Shown: piece by piece, positions 450 to 13,477 of the stretch
Position numbering within the stretch: the first letter of the stretch is position 1
How the letters are laid out: the number at the start of each line of letters is the position of its first letter
Source: an uncultured virus (IMG/VR IMGVR_UViG_3300044715_001089)
Lineage: Duplodnaviria > Heunggongvirae > Uroviricota > Caudoviricetes
IMG/VR virus record: IMGVR_UViG_3300044715_001089
DNA length: 20,000 nt
Strand: one strand, 5' to 3'
Translations under genes and position numbers: made by a program
The notes under the pieces: generated by a model
What the model was told of the DNA's origin: nothing
Database searches by the model: none
The model's input: the letters and a program-made list of their open reading frames with translations, nothing else

Positions 450-526
450 TGCGGGTGACGGGATTTGAACCCGCGTGCCACCAACTACCCTTTCTACACT
501 TTATAAGAGTGAGGGGATACACCCGC
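450..526 (-). ncRNA. non-canonical tRNA-like RNA, anticodon TAT (Ile-like), rearranged D-arm
   Basis: Acceptor stem GCGGGTG/CACCCGC plus discriminator A; T-arm GCGGG-TTCAAAT-CCCGT; hairpin CACT-CTTATAA-AGTG; D-loop-like TAGTTGGT lies 3' of the anticodon arm. Confidence 0.75.
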
Positions 527-1840: not shown

Positions 1841-2037
1841 TAGTTACCTTCTTGAAATGCGGACCAAACATCTACCTCATCGAGTGATAGATCTTCAGGT
1901 TTGATTTTTAATAAGAGTCTATTCTTAAGACTAACTACTCTAGTAGGATGTTTTTCAAAACCATTATTAACTAAGTAGTTCTGTAAAGCGTCGACAAGAA
2001 GATCTACATCTTCACGGTTTAAATTATATCTTGGCAT
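1840..2037 (-). CDS. hypothetical protein (65 aa, MPRYNL...)
   Basis: Start moved to ATG 2037, which has an AGGA SD; TAATG coupling to the downstream gene. Confidence 0.65.
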
Positions 2038-2038
2038 A

Positions 2039-2194
2039 TTAGTCTTCCTGTTTGGGATAATACCAATTATCAGTAGGGGCGTATGCAATTCGAGAAGCAA
2101 CATAAAATATAAGTATTGCTGCAAACTGCATAACTATAGACTCGGTTAATCCAATATAGAATAACCAAATATAGGTGAATAAAAGATTTATCAT
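2039..2194 (-). CDS. small hydrophobic/membrane protein (51 aa)
   Basis: MINLLFTYIWLFYIGL...; ATG lies 2 nt after the tRNA 3' end. The longer ORF-track start falls inside the tRNA. Confidence 0.45.
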   Translation of the reverse strand: MINLLFTYIWLFYIGLTESIVMQFAAILIFYVASRIAYAPTDNWYYPKQED

Positions 2195-2196
2195 AG

Positions 2197-2270
2197 TGGG
2201 CCTTCCCGGACTCGAACCGAGGACCAAGGCGTTATGAGCACCCTGCTCTAACCAACTGAGCTAAAGGCCC
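2197..2270 (-). tRNA. tRNA-Ile2 (CAT, lysidine type); elongator Met not excluded
   Basis: GGGCCTT/AAGGCCC acceptor, TAGCTCAGTTGGTTAGAGCA D-arm, GGGTG-CTCATAA-CGCCT anticodon arm, GGTTCGAGTCC T-arm; CCA not encoded. Confidence 0.9.
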
Positions 2271-2271
2271 G

Positions 2272-2386
2272 TAGGACAGTTGTGACCACCTTATCTGGGG
2301 AGAAAGGTGGATTGGTATATTCACTTTGTGGACGGGCCAGTCGTAAACGAGTGGGGATCCGTAACAATGGGGACTGTAAGCTCCCG
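2272..2386. ncRNA. candidate structured RNA just 5' of tRNA-Ile2
   Basis: GC-rich island with CCACCTT/AAGGTGG hairpin, ACGG..CCA.TCG/CGA.TGG..CCGT hairpin and closing ACAGTTGT/ACA(bulge)ACTGT stem. Confidence 0.4.
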
Positions 2387-2406
2387 AAATAAAATGCCTA
2401 GAGCAA

Positions 2407-2607
2407 TTAAACTCTTCCGGCAGTTACAAAATAACTACGAACTTCTGCAGTTAGAAACATAAGAGAAGGTTGATCGTACTTATCGTACTCAACTTCTGTC
2501 TCTAGTCTATCCCGAAGTTCTTCTGTAATCAGTTGAACTGCATCTGCATCGTCTTGAAATTCACCAGGAATATCCATGGTTATTTCAGCTGTAAATTTAA
2601 TTTTCAT
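2407..2607 (-). CDS. hypothetical acidic protein (66 aa, MKIKFTAE...)
   Basis: ATG 2607 with AAGG SD, directly after the csp stop. Confidence 0.65.
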   Translation of the reverse strand: MKIKFTAEITMDIPGEFQDDADAVQLITEELRDRLETEVEYDKYDQPSLMFLTAEVRSYFVTAGRV

Positions 2608-2617
2608 AACTACCTTA

Positions 2618-2818
2618 TTAGAGTGGGCGGACGTTCTTAGCTTCCATGCCTTTTTGGCCTTGACCAACTTCAAACTCTACTTCTTGACCGGTAGCCAAAG
2701 AACGGCGACCTGTACCTTCGATGTTTGAGAAGTGAACGAATAAATCGTCACCGTTTTCACGTGAAATAAAGCCGAAGCCTTTTTCATCATTGAAGAATTT
2801 TACTGTACCTTTGTTCAT
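2618..2818 (-). CDS. cspA: cold-shock protein (CSD)
   Basis: [16 protein letters not shown] (RNP1), DLFVHFS (RNP2), [12 protein letters not shown]. Confidence 0.97.
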
Positions 2819-2851
2819 TATATATCTTTCATTTGTTTCTAATATTTATTA

Positions 2852-2860
2852 AGTATAGCA
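2852..2860 (-). promoter_or_regulatory. extended -10 promoter (TG-C-TATACT) upstream of csp
   Basis: TGCTATACT about 34 nt upstream of the ATG; the same pattern occurs upstream of the rpf leader. Confidence 0.5.
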
Positions 2861-2870
2861 TAGATTAGAT

Positions 2871-3026
2871 CTACTGGGGGACTGGCTCTTCTTGAGCCAG
2901 AAGATAAAGCCTAATATCAAGAAGAAGATCAGTCATTTCATTGGTGGAAACAAGATCTCTACCTGATATATCTTTAATAGCTTTATCTATGAGATTAGTT
3001 GCTAGTTGTTTAGGAGTTGCTTCCAT
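2871..3026 (-). CDS. hypothetical protein (51 aa, MEATPKQLATNLIDKAIKDISGRDLVSTNEMTDLLLDIRL...)
   Basis: Below the ORF-track cutoff; GAGGG SD; open frame translated by hand. Confidence 0.65.
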   Translation of the reverse strand: MEATPKQLATNLIDKAIKDISGRDLVSTNEMTDLLLDIRLYLLAQEEPVPQ

Positions 3027-3086
3027 TGTGTTTACCCTCTAACTTTTGGATTTGTATTGTATATAGTACAGACACATCTTTAATAG

Positions 3087-3159
3087 TGCGCCCTCCGGGG
3101 TTCGAACCCGGGACACATGGATTAAAAGTCCACTGCTCTACCAACTGAGCTAAAGGCGC
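3087..3159 (-). tRNA. tRNA-Lys (TTT)
   Basis: GCGCCTT/AGGGCGC acceptor, GTGGA-CTTTTAA-TCCAT anticodon arm, GGTTCGAACC T-arm; no CCA. Confidence 0.95.
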
Positions 3160-3284
3160 TTGTTTTCAGTTGCTTTGCGAGCAGATTCAATCATCTCTTT
3201 AATTTCTTTATCTTCTTCATGGAACCCAATAAAAGTTAAGATGCCCCACAAAGAACCAATAGCAATGATTACATAAGCTATCAT
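3150..3284 (-). CDS. small single-TM protein (44 aa, MIAYVIIAIGSLWGILTFIGF...)
   Basis: TAATG coupling with the upstream gene; stop codon lies in the first 10 nt of tRNA-Lys. Confidence 0.5.
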   Translation of the reverse strand: MIAYVIIAIGSLWGILTFIGFHEEDKEIKEMIESARKATENKRL

Positions 3285-3472
3285 TATAAGTATGGTTGAT
3301 TCTTAGATGTAAGGTTTTTAAAATTCTTACGCTTTTTTATCTTATAGCCATTAGCTTTAAGTTCATCAACTATCTGTTCTGGTATACCATACCAAACAGT
3401 AATGCCATTACGAGTTAAAACATGAGCAATAATGTCTAGCTTATCTTTAACATGCATTTTAATGTAAGTCAT
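3284..3472 (-). CDS. hypothetical basic protein
   Basis: 62 aa, AAGGA SD, ATGA overlap with the upstream ORF. Confidence 0.65.
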   Translation of the reverse strand: MTYIKMHVKDKLDIIAHVLTRNGITVWYGIPEQIVDELKANGYKIKKRKNFKNLTSKNQPYL

Positions 3473-3603
3473 TCGTAATATCCTTGATTTCTAGTGGGAA
3501 CTCCATAAGGAGTCTGATGCATTTTATTGTATGATTTATGACGTTGTCTAGCTGTTCGTTTAAAACGAATACGGATAATAAGTTGTTTAATAGAATGAAT
3601 CAT
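3469..3603 (-). CDS. small basic protein (44 aa, MIHSIKQLIIRIRFKRTARQRH...)
   Basis: Translated by hand; AAGGA SD; ATGA coupling. Confidence 0.55.
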   Translation of the reverse strand: MIHSIKQLIIRIRFKRTARQRHKSYNKMHQTPYGVPTRNQGYYE

Positions 3604-3605
3604 AT

Positions 3606-3695
3606 TCAGTCCTTATATTTATAAGCATCATATATAATGCAAAGTATTGTTCCACCAACAATTGATATGCACATAGTCATAGCAAAAAAGTTCAT
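3606..3695 (-). CDS. possible 29-aa hydrophobic peptide (MNFFAMTMCISIVGGTILCIIYDAYKYKD)
   Basis: Fills the gap, has an AAGG SD and one TM-like stretch. Confidence 0.35.
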   Translation of the reverse strand: MNFFAMTMCISIVGGTILCIIYDAYKYKD

Positions 3696-3724
3696 AAAAA
3701 ATACTGCCTTTAAATTTAAATTAA

Positions 3725-3840
3725 TTGATGGTAGGTAACGGGGCGATATGGGGCCACTAGTATCGTTACTTTTAGTTAGCAATTCACACCGGCTTATTTC
3801 TGCGAAAATCGCTTAGTAGGAATTTACCAGCTACCATCAA
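3725..3840. ncRNA. structured RNA candidate A of a tandem pair
   Basis: Perfect 10-bp closing stem TTGATGGTAG/CTACCATCAA; inner GTAAC/GTTAC stem around GGC-GATATGGG-GCC. Confidence 0.6.
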
Positions 3841-3847
3841 ACTTATC

Positions 3848-3946
3848 TAGCTAGTAGTAGTTACGGGGAATATAGGCCCACGTGCTGTGTGTAACTATTA
3901 ATATCGTTCCGAATTCCAAATAGTAAATCGAACACGCTACTAGCTA
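3848..3946. ncRNA. structured RNA candidate B of a tandem pair
   Basis: Perfect 10-bp closing stem TAGCTAGTAG/CTACTAGCTA; inner TAGTTAC/GTAACTA stem around GGG-AATATAGG-CCC. Confidence 0.6.
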
Positions 3947-3951
3947 AAATC

Positions 3952-4248
3952 TTAAGAAGAAAAATCAACGTAAGTTACGTTGTCATTATTGTTGTGCAAA
4001 TTTTGAGGATCATAAACAAGAACTTTAGAGACAGCTTGTTTGTAGTTCCTCCATGCAGGGTGATTTAACTTTTCTTCAGGAATGTCATCGCCATATTCTC
4101 CCCGATGAATAAAAAGAAATCTTCCATCTGGGAACATGAAATCTATTCTATAACCATCAGCAGCCATAAAAGCCTCTAATGATTCTTCTAATGTTTTGTG
4201 TTCTAATGTCACTCCTTCGAGTGACCGTGTTCCAAATGTAATAGTCAT
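3952..4248 (-). CDS. hypothetical protein
   Basis: 98-aa ORF with ATGA overlap to the upstream gene. Confidence 0.7.
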   Translation of the reverse strand: MTITFGTRSLEGVTLEHKTLEESLEAFMAADGYRIDFMFPDGRFLFIHRGEYGDDIPEEKLNHPAWRNYKQAVSKVLVYDPQNLHNNNDNVTYVDFSS

Positions 4249-4457
4249 TTAATATACTTCCATTTATCTATTCCAGGGATAAGACCTAATGCAGATCCGT
4301 TATCCCAATCAACAAAGACTGTACCAATATCATCTATATAAGATATAGTTCCTTTGGTACCAGGTGTCATTGGGGTGAACTCATCAGTGCAATCAACAAG
4401 TTCTATCCTTCTACCAATAAGAGAAGACATCTGTGCTTTAATTATTTGACTGTCCAT
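4245..4457 (-). CDS. DUF4314-family protein
   Basis: GRRIELV...D...PGTKGTI..IDDIGTVFVDWDNGSALGLIPG.D signature. Confidence 0.85.
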   Translation of the reverse strand: MDSQIIKAQMSSLIGRRIELVDCTDEFTPMTPGTKGTISYIDDIGTVFVDWDNGSALGLIPGIDKWKYIK

Positions 4458-4460
4458 ATA

Positions 4461-5693
4461 TCAAATCTTAATGTTAGGTGTAAAAGTCACAGGGATAGAT
4501 CTTGGACCGACTACTGATTCGTAAGCTTCTTTATAAAGAACTTCTCCAGTAATTTTATAATCTGGCATTCTTTTTGCAACAACTTTCATACATTCCTGCA
4601 TTTGAGCTCGTGCTAAAGAAGCACCGAGACAGTAATGAATTCCACCACCATAAGACAGGGTAATGCCCTTTGTTGCTTTACGATCAAGAATAAATTCAGA
4701 TGCGTTTTCAAAAGCTAAGTCATCGTAATTATTAACACCCAATGCTGGGGAGATAATTGTTCCCTTAGGGAATAAGACTCCATTGTATTCAATGTCTTCT
4801 GAAGCAATTCTCATTACATATTTAAAAACAGAATCTAAGCGAGTAGACTCTTCTATTATATCTTCAACATTTAAATCATTGGCTAACATCGATATTAAAT
4901 CTGGTCTCTCAGATAGCATAACTGCTATAAGACCAAGCTGTGCTCTAGTCGTATCCATGCCTGCCATCAGAACTACTTGGATAAGAGATTGTATTTCTTG
5001 ATCTGATAATTTTTGACCATCAAATTCTGCGTCAATTAACATAGAAACAAGGTCATTGCCTTTGTTTTCTTTTTTGCTGATGATTAAATTATTAGTATAT
5101 TGATCTAATTCATTTTGAGTATTTAATATAACTTCGCTATGGTGTTCAAAGTTTCCACCAAATGTTTTGAAGGTATCATCAGCCCATTGACTAAACTTCT
5201 CCCAATCTGAATTGGGGACTCCTACTATCTTAGAGATAATGTATGATGGATACTTGTTGAATACATCTTTTTGCAAATCGCATTGACCGCTTTCGATGAC
5301 ATCATTAAGAACTTGATTGATAGCATCTTGCATGTCTGGTCGAAGAAGCTCAGCTGTCTTTGGTGAAAAAACTGGAGCAATTATCTTTCTGAGTCTTGAA
5401 TGATCTTCGCCTTCTAAGTTAATTATTAATTTTTTCCTACTCATCTTAATCTCTTCAGTAAAATGAGGATTAAGTTCGCTTAATAAATACAAACCATTGT
5501 GCCATCTCTTGTCTTTCAACATAGCAGCAGAATGCTTGTGGTCTAAAATCACATAAGAAAGTTTTGTTGTGCCAATCCAGTTTTGCTTATGAGCTTCTAA
5601 ACCAATTTTAAATTGATCATAAGTTGTTAAATCAGATTTAATAAGTTTAGGTGGTACATAAGGAAGATCTAGTTCAGATACTAGAATAGACAT
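4461..5693 (-). CDS. cytochrome P450 (soluble bacterial type)
   Basis: HSRLRK (C-helix), AGMDTT (I-helix), EESTR (ExxR), YGGGIHYCLG (heme Cys ligand); 410 aa; AAGGA SD. Confidence 0.96.
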   Translation of the reverse strand: MSILVSELDLPYVPPKLIKSDLTTYDQFKIGLEAHKQNWIGTTKLSYVILDHKHSAAMLKDKRWHNGLYLLSELNPHFTEEIKMSRKKLIINLEGEDHSRLRKIIAPVFSPKTAELLRPDMQDAINQVLNDVIESGQCDLQKDVFNKYPSYIISKIVGVPNSDWEKFSQWADDTFKTFGGNFEHHSEVILNTQNELDQYTNNLIISKKENKGNDLVSMLIDAEFDGQKLSDQEIQSLIQVVLMAGMDTTRAQLGLIAVMLSERPDLISMLANDLNVEDIIEESTRLDSVFKYVMRIASEDIEYNGVLFPKGTIISPALGVNNYDDLAFENASEFILDRKATKGITLSYGGGIHYCLGASLARAQMQECMKVVAKRMPDYKITGEVLYKEAYESVVGPRSIPVTFTPNIKI

Positions 5694-5711
5694 AAAATGT
5701 TTCCTTAAATA

Positions 5712-6185
5712 TTAATTGGAGTTAGAAAGATAAAGGTTAAGATCACCTTTATATTCATCGCAAATATAAGTGATAGCTCCAAAGATTACTGAAGCATACA
5801 AAGCAGCATCGGTTTCGCCAGAAGAACTATTTGAAAGATAACCTACGATATAAGGAATTGTTCTACCATTATCTAAGGCAGAACAAATAGTATCTCCATA
5901 TTCAATAAGAGAAGCTTTAGTAATTGTATTAGCTTGACCAGAGTTATTATAAACATGGTCAAGATAAGCTTCATACTTGTTGACAACTGGAGCTGGAGCA
6001 TAAGTTTGCACTGGGGCAGGCGGTGTGGTAACTACAGAATCTGATGTTTTACTCCCAGATGCTAAAAGAATACCAATGAGTAATGCAACAACTGCAATTA
6101 GTCCCATGATAATTCCCATTTGTTTCATACCTGCACCTGGCTTAGGAGCTTGAGGTGTTGGTGGGTCTAGTAAAATATCGTTCAT
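5712..6185 (-). CDS. membrane-anchored DUF732-like protein
   Basis: Start moved to ATG 6185 (AAGGA SD). TM helix, Pro/Thr linker, then YL...G..IC..L..G...AITYIC two-Cys domain typical of actinobacterial DUF732. Confidence 0.7.
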   Translation of the reverse strand: MNDILLDPPTPQAPKPGAGMKQMGIIMGLIAVVALLIGILLASGSKTSDSVVTTPPAPVQTYAPAPVVNKYEAYLDHVYNNSGQANTITKASLIEYGDTICSALDNGRTIPYIVGYLSNSSSGETDAALYASVIFGAITYICDEYKGDLNLYLSNSN

Positions 6186-6214
6186 TTTTTTCCTTATTAT
6201 AGTGTATTGCATAG

Positions 6215-6298
6215 TACCCGAGACCGGACTTGAACCGGTAAGAGGTTGCCCTCCGGGGGGTTTAAGCCCCCTGCGTCTGCCTATTCCGCCACTCGGGC
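6215..6298 (-). tRNA. tRNA-Leu (TAA)
   Basis: GCCCGAG/CTCGGGT acceptor, GGGGG-CTTAAAC-CCCCC anticodon arm, long variable arm GAGG-GCAA-CCTC, GGTTCAAGTCC T-arm; no CCA. Confidence 0.95.
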
Positions 6299-6303
6299 AG
6301 ATG

Positions 6304-6546
6304 TTAGACGAGGTTAGGTTCTAAGACTACGTCTTCGGTGTTTCCTGCATAAAGTATAACATCTTTCATTGACTTATACCAGTCAATAAGATATTCTACT
6401 TTTTCTCCATTAAATTCTCCACCTTCTAAATCTAATACAGATTGGTGTTGTGGAAGGATATTATGAAGGAATTCAAGTGCTGCAATCGTGTCCACGATGC
6501 GGGGGATATCGTCGGGATCTGATCCGACTAAAATGTTAATTGACAT
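6304..6546 (-). CDS. hypothetical acidic protein
   Basis: 80 aa, AGGAG SD. Confidence 0.75.
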   Translation of the reverse strand: MSINILVGSDPDDIPRIVDTIAALEFLHNILPQHQSVLDLEGGEFNGEKVEYLIDWYKSMKDVILYAGNTEDVVLEPNLV

Positions 6547-12189: not shown

Positions 12190-12319
12190 TCTTAAGACTT
12201 TAATCCTAGAGCACAAGAAAGGATTATTTCTTTGTACCCAATAAACACACACATTTAATCATAATACATCTAAGCATTATAAGTTCAATGAACTTGTACT
12301 CTAGGAAATCTTAATTGGG

Positions 12320-12721: not shown

Positions 12722-13477
12722 TCAATAAGGATTATTAGGTGGGGCAATGTAACTAGAATTTTTGAATGAAGATGATGGCTCTTGTCCAATAACTTCTATG
12801 TATCGGATCTGATGCCAGTGAGACAAGAAGATCTTAGTTGCATAGCGTCGAGCTTGAGCTTCTAGCCTGGAGTCTTCTGTGTCAGCACCTGAATCATCTC
12901 GTTGTTTGATTCTACGGTCAAGCTCTTTAGTATAGAGTTGACCGTAAAAGGAATCAGGAACAGTAGCAAAAGATTTGCCGATCTTCCAAGTAAGATTCTT
13001 TAAGAATGGGTTCCAAGATCCTGGTTGAGCAGTACTTGGATTAAGACCACAATAGCTCCATAAGTTATTAAAGTTAGGAGCTTTGTGAATATCTATCGTA
13101 GACAACAACGCAGCAGAGGCAGCTTGTCCGATACCAGGCTGTTGTAAAGCCCAGGTACCAGTCACAGTGGAGTGGTTATAGTCACTAAAGATGGGAGTAG
13201 TAGAATTCTCTAATCCTCTTAGATAATGAGAATATGATTTAAAAACAGATGAGTTCTTAGAATCATTGAGATCTAGCAACGAGATCCGTGTGTCTTCTAT
13301 GTCATAATAGAAAGATACAAGGTTTTCCATTTCTGTAGTATCAAAACCACGAGAAATAAAATTAAATTTGCGTGACATTATAGACACAACATCTACGCTC
13401 ATAAGGGTGTCTGATTCAATATCTAATTGGGCTAGATCTTGATTGTGAACATGGTCATAGTTAATTTGATTATTCAT
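12722..13477 (-). CDS. IS110-related Nop-domain protein lacking RuvC (TasA-like)
   Basis: PGIGQAASAALLSTIDI...LWSYCGLNP...WNPFLK.L.WKIGKSF...YG.LY...ARRYATKIFL matches the Transposase_20/Nop fold; no N-terminal DEDD domain. Confidence 0.7.
   Translation of the reverse strand: MNNQINYDHVHNQDLAQLDIESDTLMSVDVVSIMSRKFNFISRGFDTTEMENLVSFYYDIEDTRISLLDLNDSKNSSVFKSYSHYLRGLENSTTPIFSDYNHSTVTGTWALQQPGIGQAASAALLSTIDIHKAPNFNNLWSYCGLNPSTAQPGSWNPFLKNLTWKIGKSFATVPDSFYGQLYTKELDRRIKQRDDSGADTEDSRLEAQARRYATKIFLSHWHQIRYIEVIGQEPSSSFKNSSYIAPPNNPY

Follow-up and report, generated by a model that had tools for sequence, protein, structure and literature searches.

Two stem-closed units lie in tandem at positions 3725–3946 of the 20,000-nucleotide (nt) stretch of uncultured virus DNA analysed here, which as a whole is called the window, and the question they raise is whether they encode RNAs, to what family such RNAs would belong and what they would do for the phage. 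The window corresponded to positions 34589–54588 of a 104-kb IMG/VR virus record (IMGVR_UViG_3300044715_001089; G+C 37%) with an estimated completeness of 49%. A first-pass annotation, made from the letters alone, had described the pair as paralogous structured RNAs of a family that it did not recognise, had written them on the plus strand, and had suggested as their partner a Nop-domain protein encoded at 12722–13477. The units, designated A and B, were exactly as placed there, with 100% complementary closing arms and a gap of 7 nt (Table 1). As judged by comparison with related genomes, they are two members of a previously undescribed family of predicted pseudoknotted, structured RNAs in lake jumbo phages.

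A family of structured RNAs

Perfect 10-base-pair (bp) inverted repeats with arms 40–150 nt apart numbered 28 in the 104-kb genome versus 22.1 ± 6.5 in shuffles; in a genome such as this, a lone 10-bp closing stem is to be expected by chance. The family is regarded as real rather than a product of chance because a model built without B recovered B, homologs were present in relatives, and the helices covaried strongly. This covariance model (R1), made from five A-type sequences with B left out, found B at its exact ends, 3848–3946, with 21.7 bits (E 0.0075 in 100 kb); matches outside the family reached at most 12.3 bits. Together with the covariation across the family, this recovery upheld the description of A and B as paralogous structured RNAs with compensatory changes. 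Within the window, a shared motif, GGGSRATATRGGSCCAC, was confined to 3741 and 3865 even when up to 3 mismatches were allowed, with 0.14 matches expected for a pattern that had been derived from these same two copies.

Searches of the window and two relatives against Rfam gave nothing above noise, whether gathering thresholds or a cutoff of E ≤ 10 were applied, and the family was thus as unrecognised as first described, Rfam 15 holding no meaningful match. No match was obtained by blastn of positions 3400–4300 against 50,697 phage records. Further homologs were found in related lake jumbo phages, fetched through the helicase encoded in the window, which yielded 23 loci (designated by L numbers) with helicase identities of 62% to 100%. 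The motif of the inner hairpin P4 (see below) occurred in 12 places in these helicase loci, always on the gene-sense strand, and a second model (R2) found 16 sense-strand members in 24 sources. Applied to 22 whole records, R2 detected the family in 8, with 1 to 3 matches each and no new loci. The exact P4 motif was present in only 9 stretches of IMG/VR, all from this clade; the exact P4 pattern matched 62 stretches in metagenomes, where 7 loci were true members, and 28 stretches in bacterial and archaeal genomes, none of which was a true member by R2 (best 17.5 bits). All family members belong to one phage clade, and sequence counts are therefore not counts of independent events.

The members fell into four types. 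A-type units are 116–124 nt long and possess three small extra arms; B-type units are 78–128 nt long; T-type units, of 87–97 nt, lie directly 3′ of tRNA-Thr(UGU); and distant cousins (L043/L047 and L045) keep helices P1, P2 and P3 with a changed inner hairpin. The tandem order B then A was found in five phages (L026, L028, L064, L104, and L155). A 6.3-kb stretch around the units was 100% identical in a 268-kb record (G001). By the same comparison the units change fast: in L104 the A unit had the same R2 score as that of the window, and the B unit was 29 nt longer through an insertion in its variable arm; the B unit of L027 had lost 44 nt, the A unit of L065 had lost its arms, and the copy in L038 was truncated.

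Between B and A, a third stem-closed hairpin of about 48 nt was observed in L028 (10146–10203) and also in L027, L064 and L155; its stem of about 10 bp covaried and its loop was conserved around UGGGAC. The window is without it.

Predicted fold, covariation and coding strand

The strands of the four helices were arranged in the order P1-P2-[arms]-P3-P2′-P4-P3′-P1′. P1, the closing helix of 8–12 bp, is formed by the 5′ and 3′ ends and is variable in sequence except for its inner AG/CU pairs; P2 (4–7 bp) has its 5′ strand straight after the 5′ strand of P1; P3 (5–7 bp) has its 3′ strand continuous with P1; and P4 is a short hairpin with the loop CCCAUAUC, replaced by CCUAUAUU in the B units of the window and L155. 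The 5′ strands of P2 and P3 are separated by variable arms, which number from none to three, and by an A-rich linker. Invariant or nearly so were, in P1, the inner pairs; in P2, the first pair (C-G); in P4, two of the G-C pairs, the loop, and the U that precedes the hairpin; and the A-rich linker. Since P2 crosses P3, the fold is predicted to be a pseudoknot. The stems described in the first-pass annotation stood, but its fold was incomplete, for the covarying helix P2 had been missed; likewise, the shared inner module was retained but the length of the inner stem of B was not, the TA after the closing stem extending it to 7 bp.

In a 16-sequence alignment, 95.4% of 348 cells paired, versus 68.4% in shuffles and 27–53% with slid partners; the alignment had been fitted to the model, which favours the structure, and the slid controls and the raw sequences agreed with it. 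Changes on both sides were seen in 18 of the 23 modelled pairs, including 7 of 10 in P1 and all 6 in P3. In the raw sequences, P1 was UUGAUAACAG/CUGUUGUCAA in L027 versus UUGAUAGUGG/CCACUAUCAA in L028, with several differing positions, all compensated, and the P4 stem occurred as GGC/GCC, GGG/CCC, GGA/UCC, GGUC/GACC and GGUU/AACC. P2 lay outside the model: the nucleotides after the 5′ strand of P1 paired with the 5′ bulge end before ‘U-GG’, as CUGGUA/UACUAG (A), CGUGUU/AGCACG (B), CUAACAU/AUGUUAG (T), CCUUG/UAAGG and CCCUG/UAGGG, and in the cousins as CGUGU/GCACG and CCAGUA/AUGCUGG. As computed with custom scripts, mean P2 runs were 5.2–5.5 bp versus 0–2.4 bp when slid and 1.8 bp between groups, with six distinct 4-nt pairings. 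Pairing of the P4 loop with the bulge or linker, inspected by eye, was inconsistent across types.

On the gene-sense strand, the modelled helices contained 10 G·U cells versus 2 A·C, both A·C cells being in the two most degenerate members. The long open reading frames (ORFs) of the window and its tRNAs (Met, Lys, Leu, plus a fourth called by Rfam only) were all on the minus strand, and folding energies of single units did not separate the strands. Because of the G·U excess and the orientation of the genes, the minus strand is most likely the RNA strand, and the plus strand on which the units had been written was abandoned.

Table 1. Positions of units A and B, their predicted helices and the tRNAs in the window
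Feature	Position	Strand	Description
Unit A	3725–3840	-	116 nt, A-type; 5′ to 3′ from 3840 to 3725; R2 81.9 bits
A P1 5′ strand UUGAUGGUAG	3831–3840	-	Pairs with 3725–3734 (3′ strand CUACCAUCAA); perfect 10 bp
A P2 5′ strand CUGGUA (predicted pseudoknot)	3825–3830	-	Pairs with 3757–3762 (UACUAG)
A variable arms and A-rich linker	3770–3824	-	2–3 small hairpins; conserved CAGAAAUAAGCC and GAAUUGCUAAC; linker end UAAAA
A P3 5′ strand GUAACG	3764–3769	-	Pairs with 3735–3740 (CGUUAC); continuous with P1 3′ strand
A P4 hairpin GGC-CCCAUAUC-GCC	3742–3755	-	Invariant U at 3756 before hairpin
Unit B	3848–3946	-	99 nt, B-type; 5′ to 3′ from 3946 to 3848; R2 51.7 bits
B P1 5′ strand UAGCUAGUAG	3937–3946	-	Pairs with 3848–3857; perfect 10 bp; compensatory variants in L155
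B P2 5′ strand CGUGUU	3931–3936	-	Pairs with 3881–3886 (AGCACG)
B variable arm and linker	3898–3930	-	Insertion here in near-identical strain L104
B P3 5′ strand UAGUUAC	3891–3897	-	Pairs with 3858–3864 (GUAACUA)
B P4 hairpin GGG-CCUAUAUU-CCC	3866–3879	-	U at 3880 before hairpin; same loop variant in L155 B
5′ flank UUAAGAUUU of unit B	3947–3955	-	Contains upstream ORF stop codon
tRNAs	450–526, 2196–2270, 3086–3159, 6214–6298	-	tRNA calls

Genomic context

At the tRNA-Thr loci (L035 to L039, L043, L045 and L047), the unit started 0–2 nt after the tRNA call in all eight, that of L038 being the truncated copy; in L043 it lay between two tRNAs and ended 3–4 nt before tRNA-Ile. The A and B units started within 4–5 nt of an ORF stop. 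The flank UUAAGAUUU recurred ahead of the first unit in relatives with a different upstream gene, and the 5′ flank UAAGAUUU was kept despite the upstream gene being a 98-amino-acid (aa) ORF in the window and a DnaJ-like ORF in L028, L064 and L120. Downstream of the units were a 29-aa hydrophobic peptide, a lipoprotein, a homolog of a 95-aa ORF of the window, or a tRNA, and an ORF with a ribosome-binding site started 10–30 nt after most units. With neighbouring genes that differ among the relatives, the units therefore appear to behave as self-contained RNA genes and not as leaders. A promoter and terminator scan of 2000–6500 gave nothing above shuffled expectation; one terminator-like hairpin was located at 3982–3966 (-), inside the end of the upstream ORF.

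A likely small hydrophobic ORF of 29 aa, MNFFAMTMCISIVGGTILCIIYDAYKYKD, was observed at 3606–3696 (-), starting 28 nt after unit A; the 58-aa TTG ORF listed at 3606–3782, which overlaps unit A, is probably not real. In L028 (10385–10415) and L027, a perfect 10-bp hairpin, GGCUUGUAGU...ACUACAAGCC, stood immediately 5′ of tRNA-Ile(UAU), a tRNA present in several relatives and not shown in the phage of the window.

Comparison with known RNAs

Several known identities were considered and rejected. For tRNA, RF00005 gave no match in 3500–4100 at E ≤ 10, and ARAGORN under relaxed, intron and mitochondrial settings gave inconsistent, mostly opposite-strand calls for 8 units. The closing a1/a2-like stem ending in AGC resembles that of a retron noncoding RNA; the reverse transcriptase domain RVT_1 (PF00078) was found in none of 5 related records, including none of the 3 that were at least 90% complete, and a retron msr/msd was rejected. 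The same 5 records had neither TROVE (Ro60), the partner that a Y RNA or YrlA would require, nor a CCA-adding enzyme; the Y-RNA idea, for which Rfam gave no match either, was dropped together with that of a phage-encoded CCA-adding enzyme. For a riboswitch, a conserved class of downstream gene was not seen, the genes there being unrelated or a tRNA. A ribozyme of the hepatitis delta virus (HDV)-like or theta type had no meaningful Rfam match, and the strand order of the units was a-b-c-b′-d-d′-c′-a′ versus a-b-c-c′-a′-d-d′-b′ in HDV. The HDV fold is a nested double pseudoknot with the strand order P1-P2-P3-P1′-P4-P2′, and it includes a 3–4-bp hairpin with a C-rich loop of 7–8 nt, as in the present units.

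A close parallel was offered by phage T4, where tRNA-Arg is followed after 1 nt by rnaD (119 nt) and, 6 nt further, by rnaC (139 nt). In both cases small RNAs stand in tandem, only a few nucleotides apart, in the tRNA region of a phage and on the same strand as the tRNAs (B of 99 nt, 7 nt, A of 116 nt in the window), and the start of rnaD 1 nt after tRNA-Arg is matched by the start of the relatives' unit 0–2 nt after the tRNA-Thr call. However, there is no homology, R2 finding no match in the T4 locus (L069), and rnaC terminates with a hairpin whose loop, UUCGAAU, is canonical and T-arm-like, whereas the present family lacks a T-loop and has the P2/P3 pseudoknot. We know of no function for these T4 RNAs, also called species 1 and species 2.

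Proposed role of the units

Our preferred explanation, held tentatively, is that the units are independent small RNAs, excised from tRNA and mRNA precursors, stable, and acting in trans through the invariant loop and the junction. We infer transcription, excision, stability and action in trans as follows. The units would be co-transcribed, on the minus strand, within phage tRNA/mRNA precursors; host nucleases that process tRNA ends would free them, as suggested by the spacings of 0–2 nt after the tRNA-Thr call and 3–4 nt before tRNA-Ile; the freed units would accumulate as stable RNAs; and the invariant loop and junction nucleotides would be presented to a protein or RNA partner in trans, while the variable arms evolve fast. 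Thus, they would be RNAs of the same kind as species 1 and 2 of T4, without being homologous to them. Substrates of RNase P other than tRNAs have been reported, among them tRNA-like structures with pseudoknots and RNAs of phages (PMC11143913).

Several observations weigh against this explanation. In the window and the other phages with A and B, the units follow an ORF and not a tRNA; the combined length of P1 and P3 exceeds the 12-bp acceptor/T-arm stack measured by RNase P; and the units have neither a T-loop nor a CCA. Complements of the loop of 7 or 8 nt were few in the phage genome, none being near a gene start or in a tRNA, and no partner of the units was identified. The sequencing runs with the unit stretch were DNA from lake-water or freshwater metagenomes, with no RNA runs among them. 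To these may be added the fitting of the pair-count alignment to the model and a group of phages, those of the L040 type, which hold the P3-P4 module only, without P1 or P2, at the 3′ end of a TIGR array.

Unlikely, in our estimation, is the alternative that the units are cis-acting punctuation, the fold setting or protecting the ends of the neighbouring tRNA, mRNA or tigRNA array and the excised piece having no role of its own. The fold would be recognised by tRNA-processing or other RNases, or would block an exonuclease, like the t-elements of plant mitochondria; t-elements in organelle transcripts are named in the title of PMC1920247. As with t-elements, a structured non-tRNA would stand at the place of a tRNA in a polycistronic transcript, where tRNA-processing enzymes could make ends, but t-elements are tRNA-like and the present units gave no consistent tRNA call. 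Such a role agrees with the position directly after tRNA-Thr in eight of eight loci, with the ORFs and ribosome-binding sites 10–30 nt behind most units, with the module at the 3′ end of the L040 array, and with the conserved 5′ flank UAAGAUUU. However, an invariant 8-nt loop and a pseudoknot exceed the needs of a nuclease stop or cleavage mark, the tandem of B and A was kept in five phages, the two tRNAs that flank the L043 unit require no additional signal, and units have often been gutted with no visible change in their neighbours.

Distinctly less probable is a new small self-cleaving ribozyme, cutting at or near its own 5′ end and thereby trimming the upstream tRNA or mRNA at its 3′ trailer; a new self-cleaving or catalytic class would in that case stand behind tRNA-Thr, ORFs and a TIGR array and would cut polycistronic transcripts. 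The compact pseudoknot, the invariant unpaired junction and loop nucleotides, the covarying helices and variable peripheral arms, and the start 0–2 nt after the tRNA-Thr call would suit such an RNA. Theta ribozymes, likewise small pseudoknotted RNAs beside phage tRNA genes, have been published as adjoining viral tRNAs, to go by an excerpt (PMC10879173). Against it stand the lack of a meaningful Rfam ribozyme match at E ≤ 10, a strand order that differs from the one we know for HDV, and the A and B units, which do not adjoin tRNAs. If true, the class would correspond to theta ribozymes in function but not in pseudoknot topology, which is unrelated.

The Nop-domain protein and TIGR arrays

The protein encoded at 12722–13477 (-) was annotated by Pfam and PHROGs as an IS110-type Transposase_20 or transposase. 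Searched against PDB, a profile made from 18 homologs matched TasR (9mty, E 3.8e-26), TasH (E 1.9e-20) and IS621 (E 0.003). Its AlphaFold2 model had a predicted local distance difference test (pLDDT) score of 84; the top Foldseek matches were all TasR, TasH or IS110-family proteins, the best being TasR and TasH with template modelling (TM) scores of 0.5–0.6. By profile and predicted structure, then, the Nop-domain protein of the first-pass annotation is genuine, and it is a TasA, the solo Nop-domain type, by such definitions as the excerpt of Faure et al. contains (PMC12045711). The TasA proteins of relatives were only about 31–36% identical to it, and their genes were followed, about 0.1–2 kb downstream, by canonical dual-repeat TIGR arrays with a period of 37 nt, an edge repeat AAUGAAUCA and a loop repeat AUUAGUAACA; a loose repeat regular expression counted roughly 10–30 repeat matches per locus. 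The 104-kb record of the window contained no dual-repeat TIGR array and no canonical stem-loop unit detectable in this search, and a scan of it with the criteria for stem-loop tigRNAs returned four isolated matches, none in the window.

In excerpts of two sources, tigRNAs are described as having two unpaired spacers of about 9 nt (8–12), each between a box C (CNA) and a box D (YG); the detection rule allows a gap of up to 15 bp between the two, and in some clades a hairpin separates them (PMC12045711; preprint 10.64898/2026.09.09.750476). The preprint excerpt also gives, for TIGRFinder, 6,685 arrays from 20,096 tas loci and describes stem-loop tigRNAs, to which the present units are similar in being tandem, with a variable closing stem conserved only at its inner end, and in belonging to a phage that encodes a Nop-type Tas protein (preprint 10.64898/2026.09.09.750476). 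They differ in that the segments at the place of the spacers in A and B are the predicted intramolecular helices P2 and P3, and no CNA-N9-YG interval was found next to P1 by eye. A and B were rejected as stem-loop tigRNAs on the lack of free spacers, of box C/D intervals and of co-occurrence with tasA.

Very unlikely, on this evidence, is the broader alternative that the units are non-canonical RNA partners (guide, scaffold or regulator) of an array-less TasA. It would draw on the TasA-type solo Nop protein itself, the canonical array not found in the 104-kb record, the likeness to tandem, variable-stem tigRNAs and the array count among tas loci in the preprint excerpt (10.64898/2026.09.09.750476), and the L040-type module directly after the last TIGR repeat. 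However, the segments adjoining P1 are internally paired and are not free 9-nt spacers, the TasA of relatives is accompanied by ordinary 37-nt dual-repeat arrays of roughly 10–30 units, and the family does not track tasA. Three loci (L035 to L037) with an intact T-type RNA had no tasA within 10 kb upstream; a record estimated as 80% complete (G014) had a cousin RNA and no tasA; in 74 other tasA loci, amounting to 753 kb, the family RNA was absent; and in the window 8.8 kb separate the units from tasA. The RNA partnership first suggested for the Nop-domain protein was accordingly not sustained.

In L040 (8417–8814; also L041 and L042), a TIGR array of about 10 units ended in a degenerate edge repeat and was followed directly by the A-rich linker and a P3-P4 module with the loop CCCAUACC, about 0.9 kb downstream of tasA. 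The R2 alignment over the 5′ half of this match is spurious, since it overlies TIGR repeats, and homology is confined to the P3-P4 module. In the window itself, a 103-nt stem-loop with a 14-bp closing stem was observed at 12215–12317 (-), just downstream of an ORF of 114 aa that follows tasA. Its 5′ flank, UUAAGAUUU, is also that of unit B, and it has the motif AGAAAUAA in common with A-type units; its place corresponds roughly, by synteny, to that of the L040 module, and blastn gave no conserved counterpart.

Control of the downstream gene and chance structure

A riboswitch or leader controlling the downstream ORF is highly improbable. The closing P1, the pseudoknot and the conserved junctions are aptamer-like, the tandem arrangement is known for aptamers, and an ORF start lies close behind; yet the downstream genes are unrelated (29-aa peptide, lipoprotein, homolog of the 95-aa ORF, tRNA), P1 does not overlap the ribosome-binding site, and some units stand directly behind or between tRNAs. 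That there is no RNA function at all, the units being a DNA-level element or chance structure in a fast-changing spacer, is barely credible: 10-bp inverted repeats at chance frequency and rearrangement break points inside units would fit, but the one-strand G·U excess, four covarying helices, one a pseudoknot, and a loop invariant across phages with helicases only 62–80% identical do not.

Other features of the window and related genomes

Genes in the window included those for a cytochrome P450, an S8 protease, a helicase and an Rpf-like transglycosylase, portal and terminase being encoded elsewhere in the genome. The P450 (4461–5693, -; 410 aa; Pfam E 9e-25) adjoins a DUF4314 protein, and the tRNA at 450–526 (-) was called by Rfam with 35.2 bits and not by ARAGORN. 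Outside the window, at G000:C1:97024–97211 of the same genome, the 12-nt unit TTCCCACCTTAC was present in 15.7 tandem copies. Records of relatives were about 200–210 kb in size, one with direct terminal repeats. G001, from which L026 and L029 derive, exceeds them in length by about 60 kb and contains two diverged copies of the helicase/tRNA/RNA region, at about 208–230 kb and 1–17 kb, with helicases 100% and 74% identical to that of the window; this layout may represent a chimeric assembly or a large duplication.

Implications

Stable small RNAs with no known function have for decades been part of the picture of the T4 tRNA cluster, and the unrelated family described here occupies the same kind of place in uncultivated lake jumbo phages. 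With four covarying helices and an invariant loop, the units therefore would provide a clean target for experiments on self-cleavage, on RNase P/Z and on partners. The TasA of the window has apparently lost, or never had, the TIGR array of its relatives, and the clade may therefore serve as a natural comparison for what an array-less Tas protein binds.

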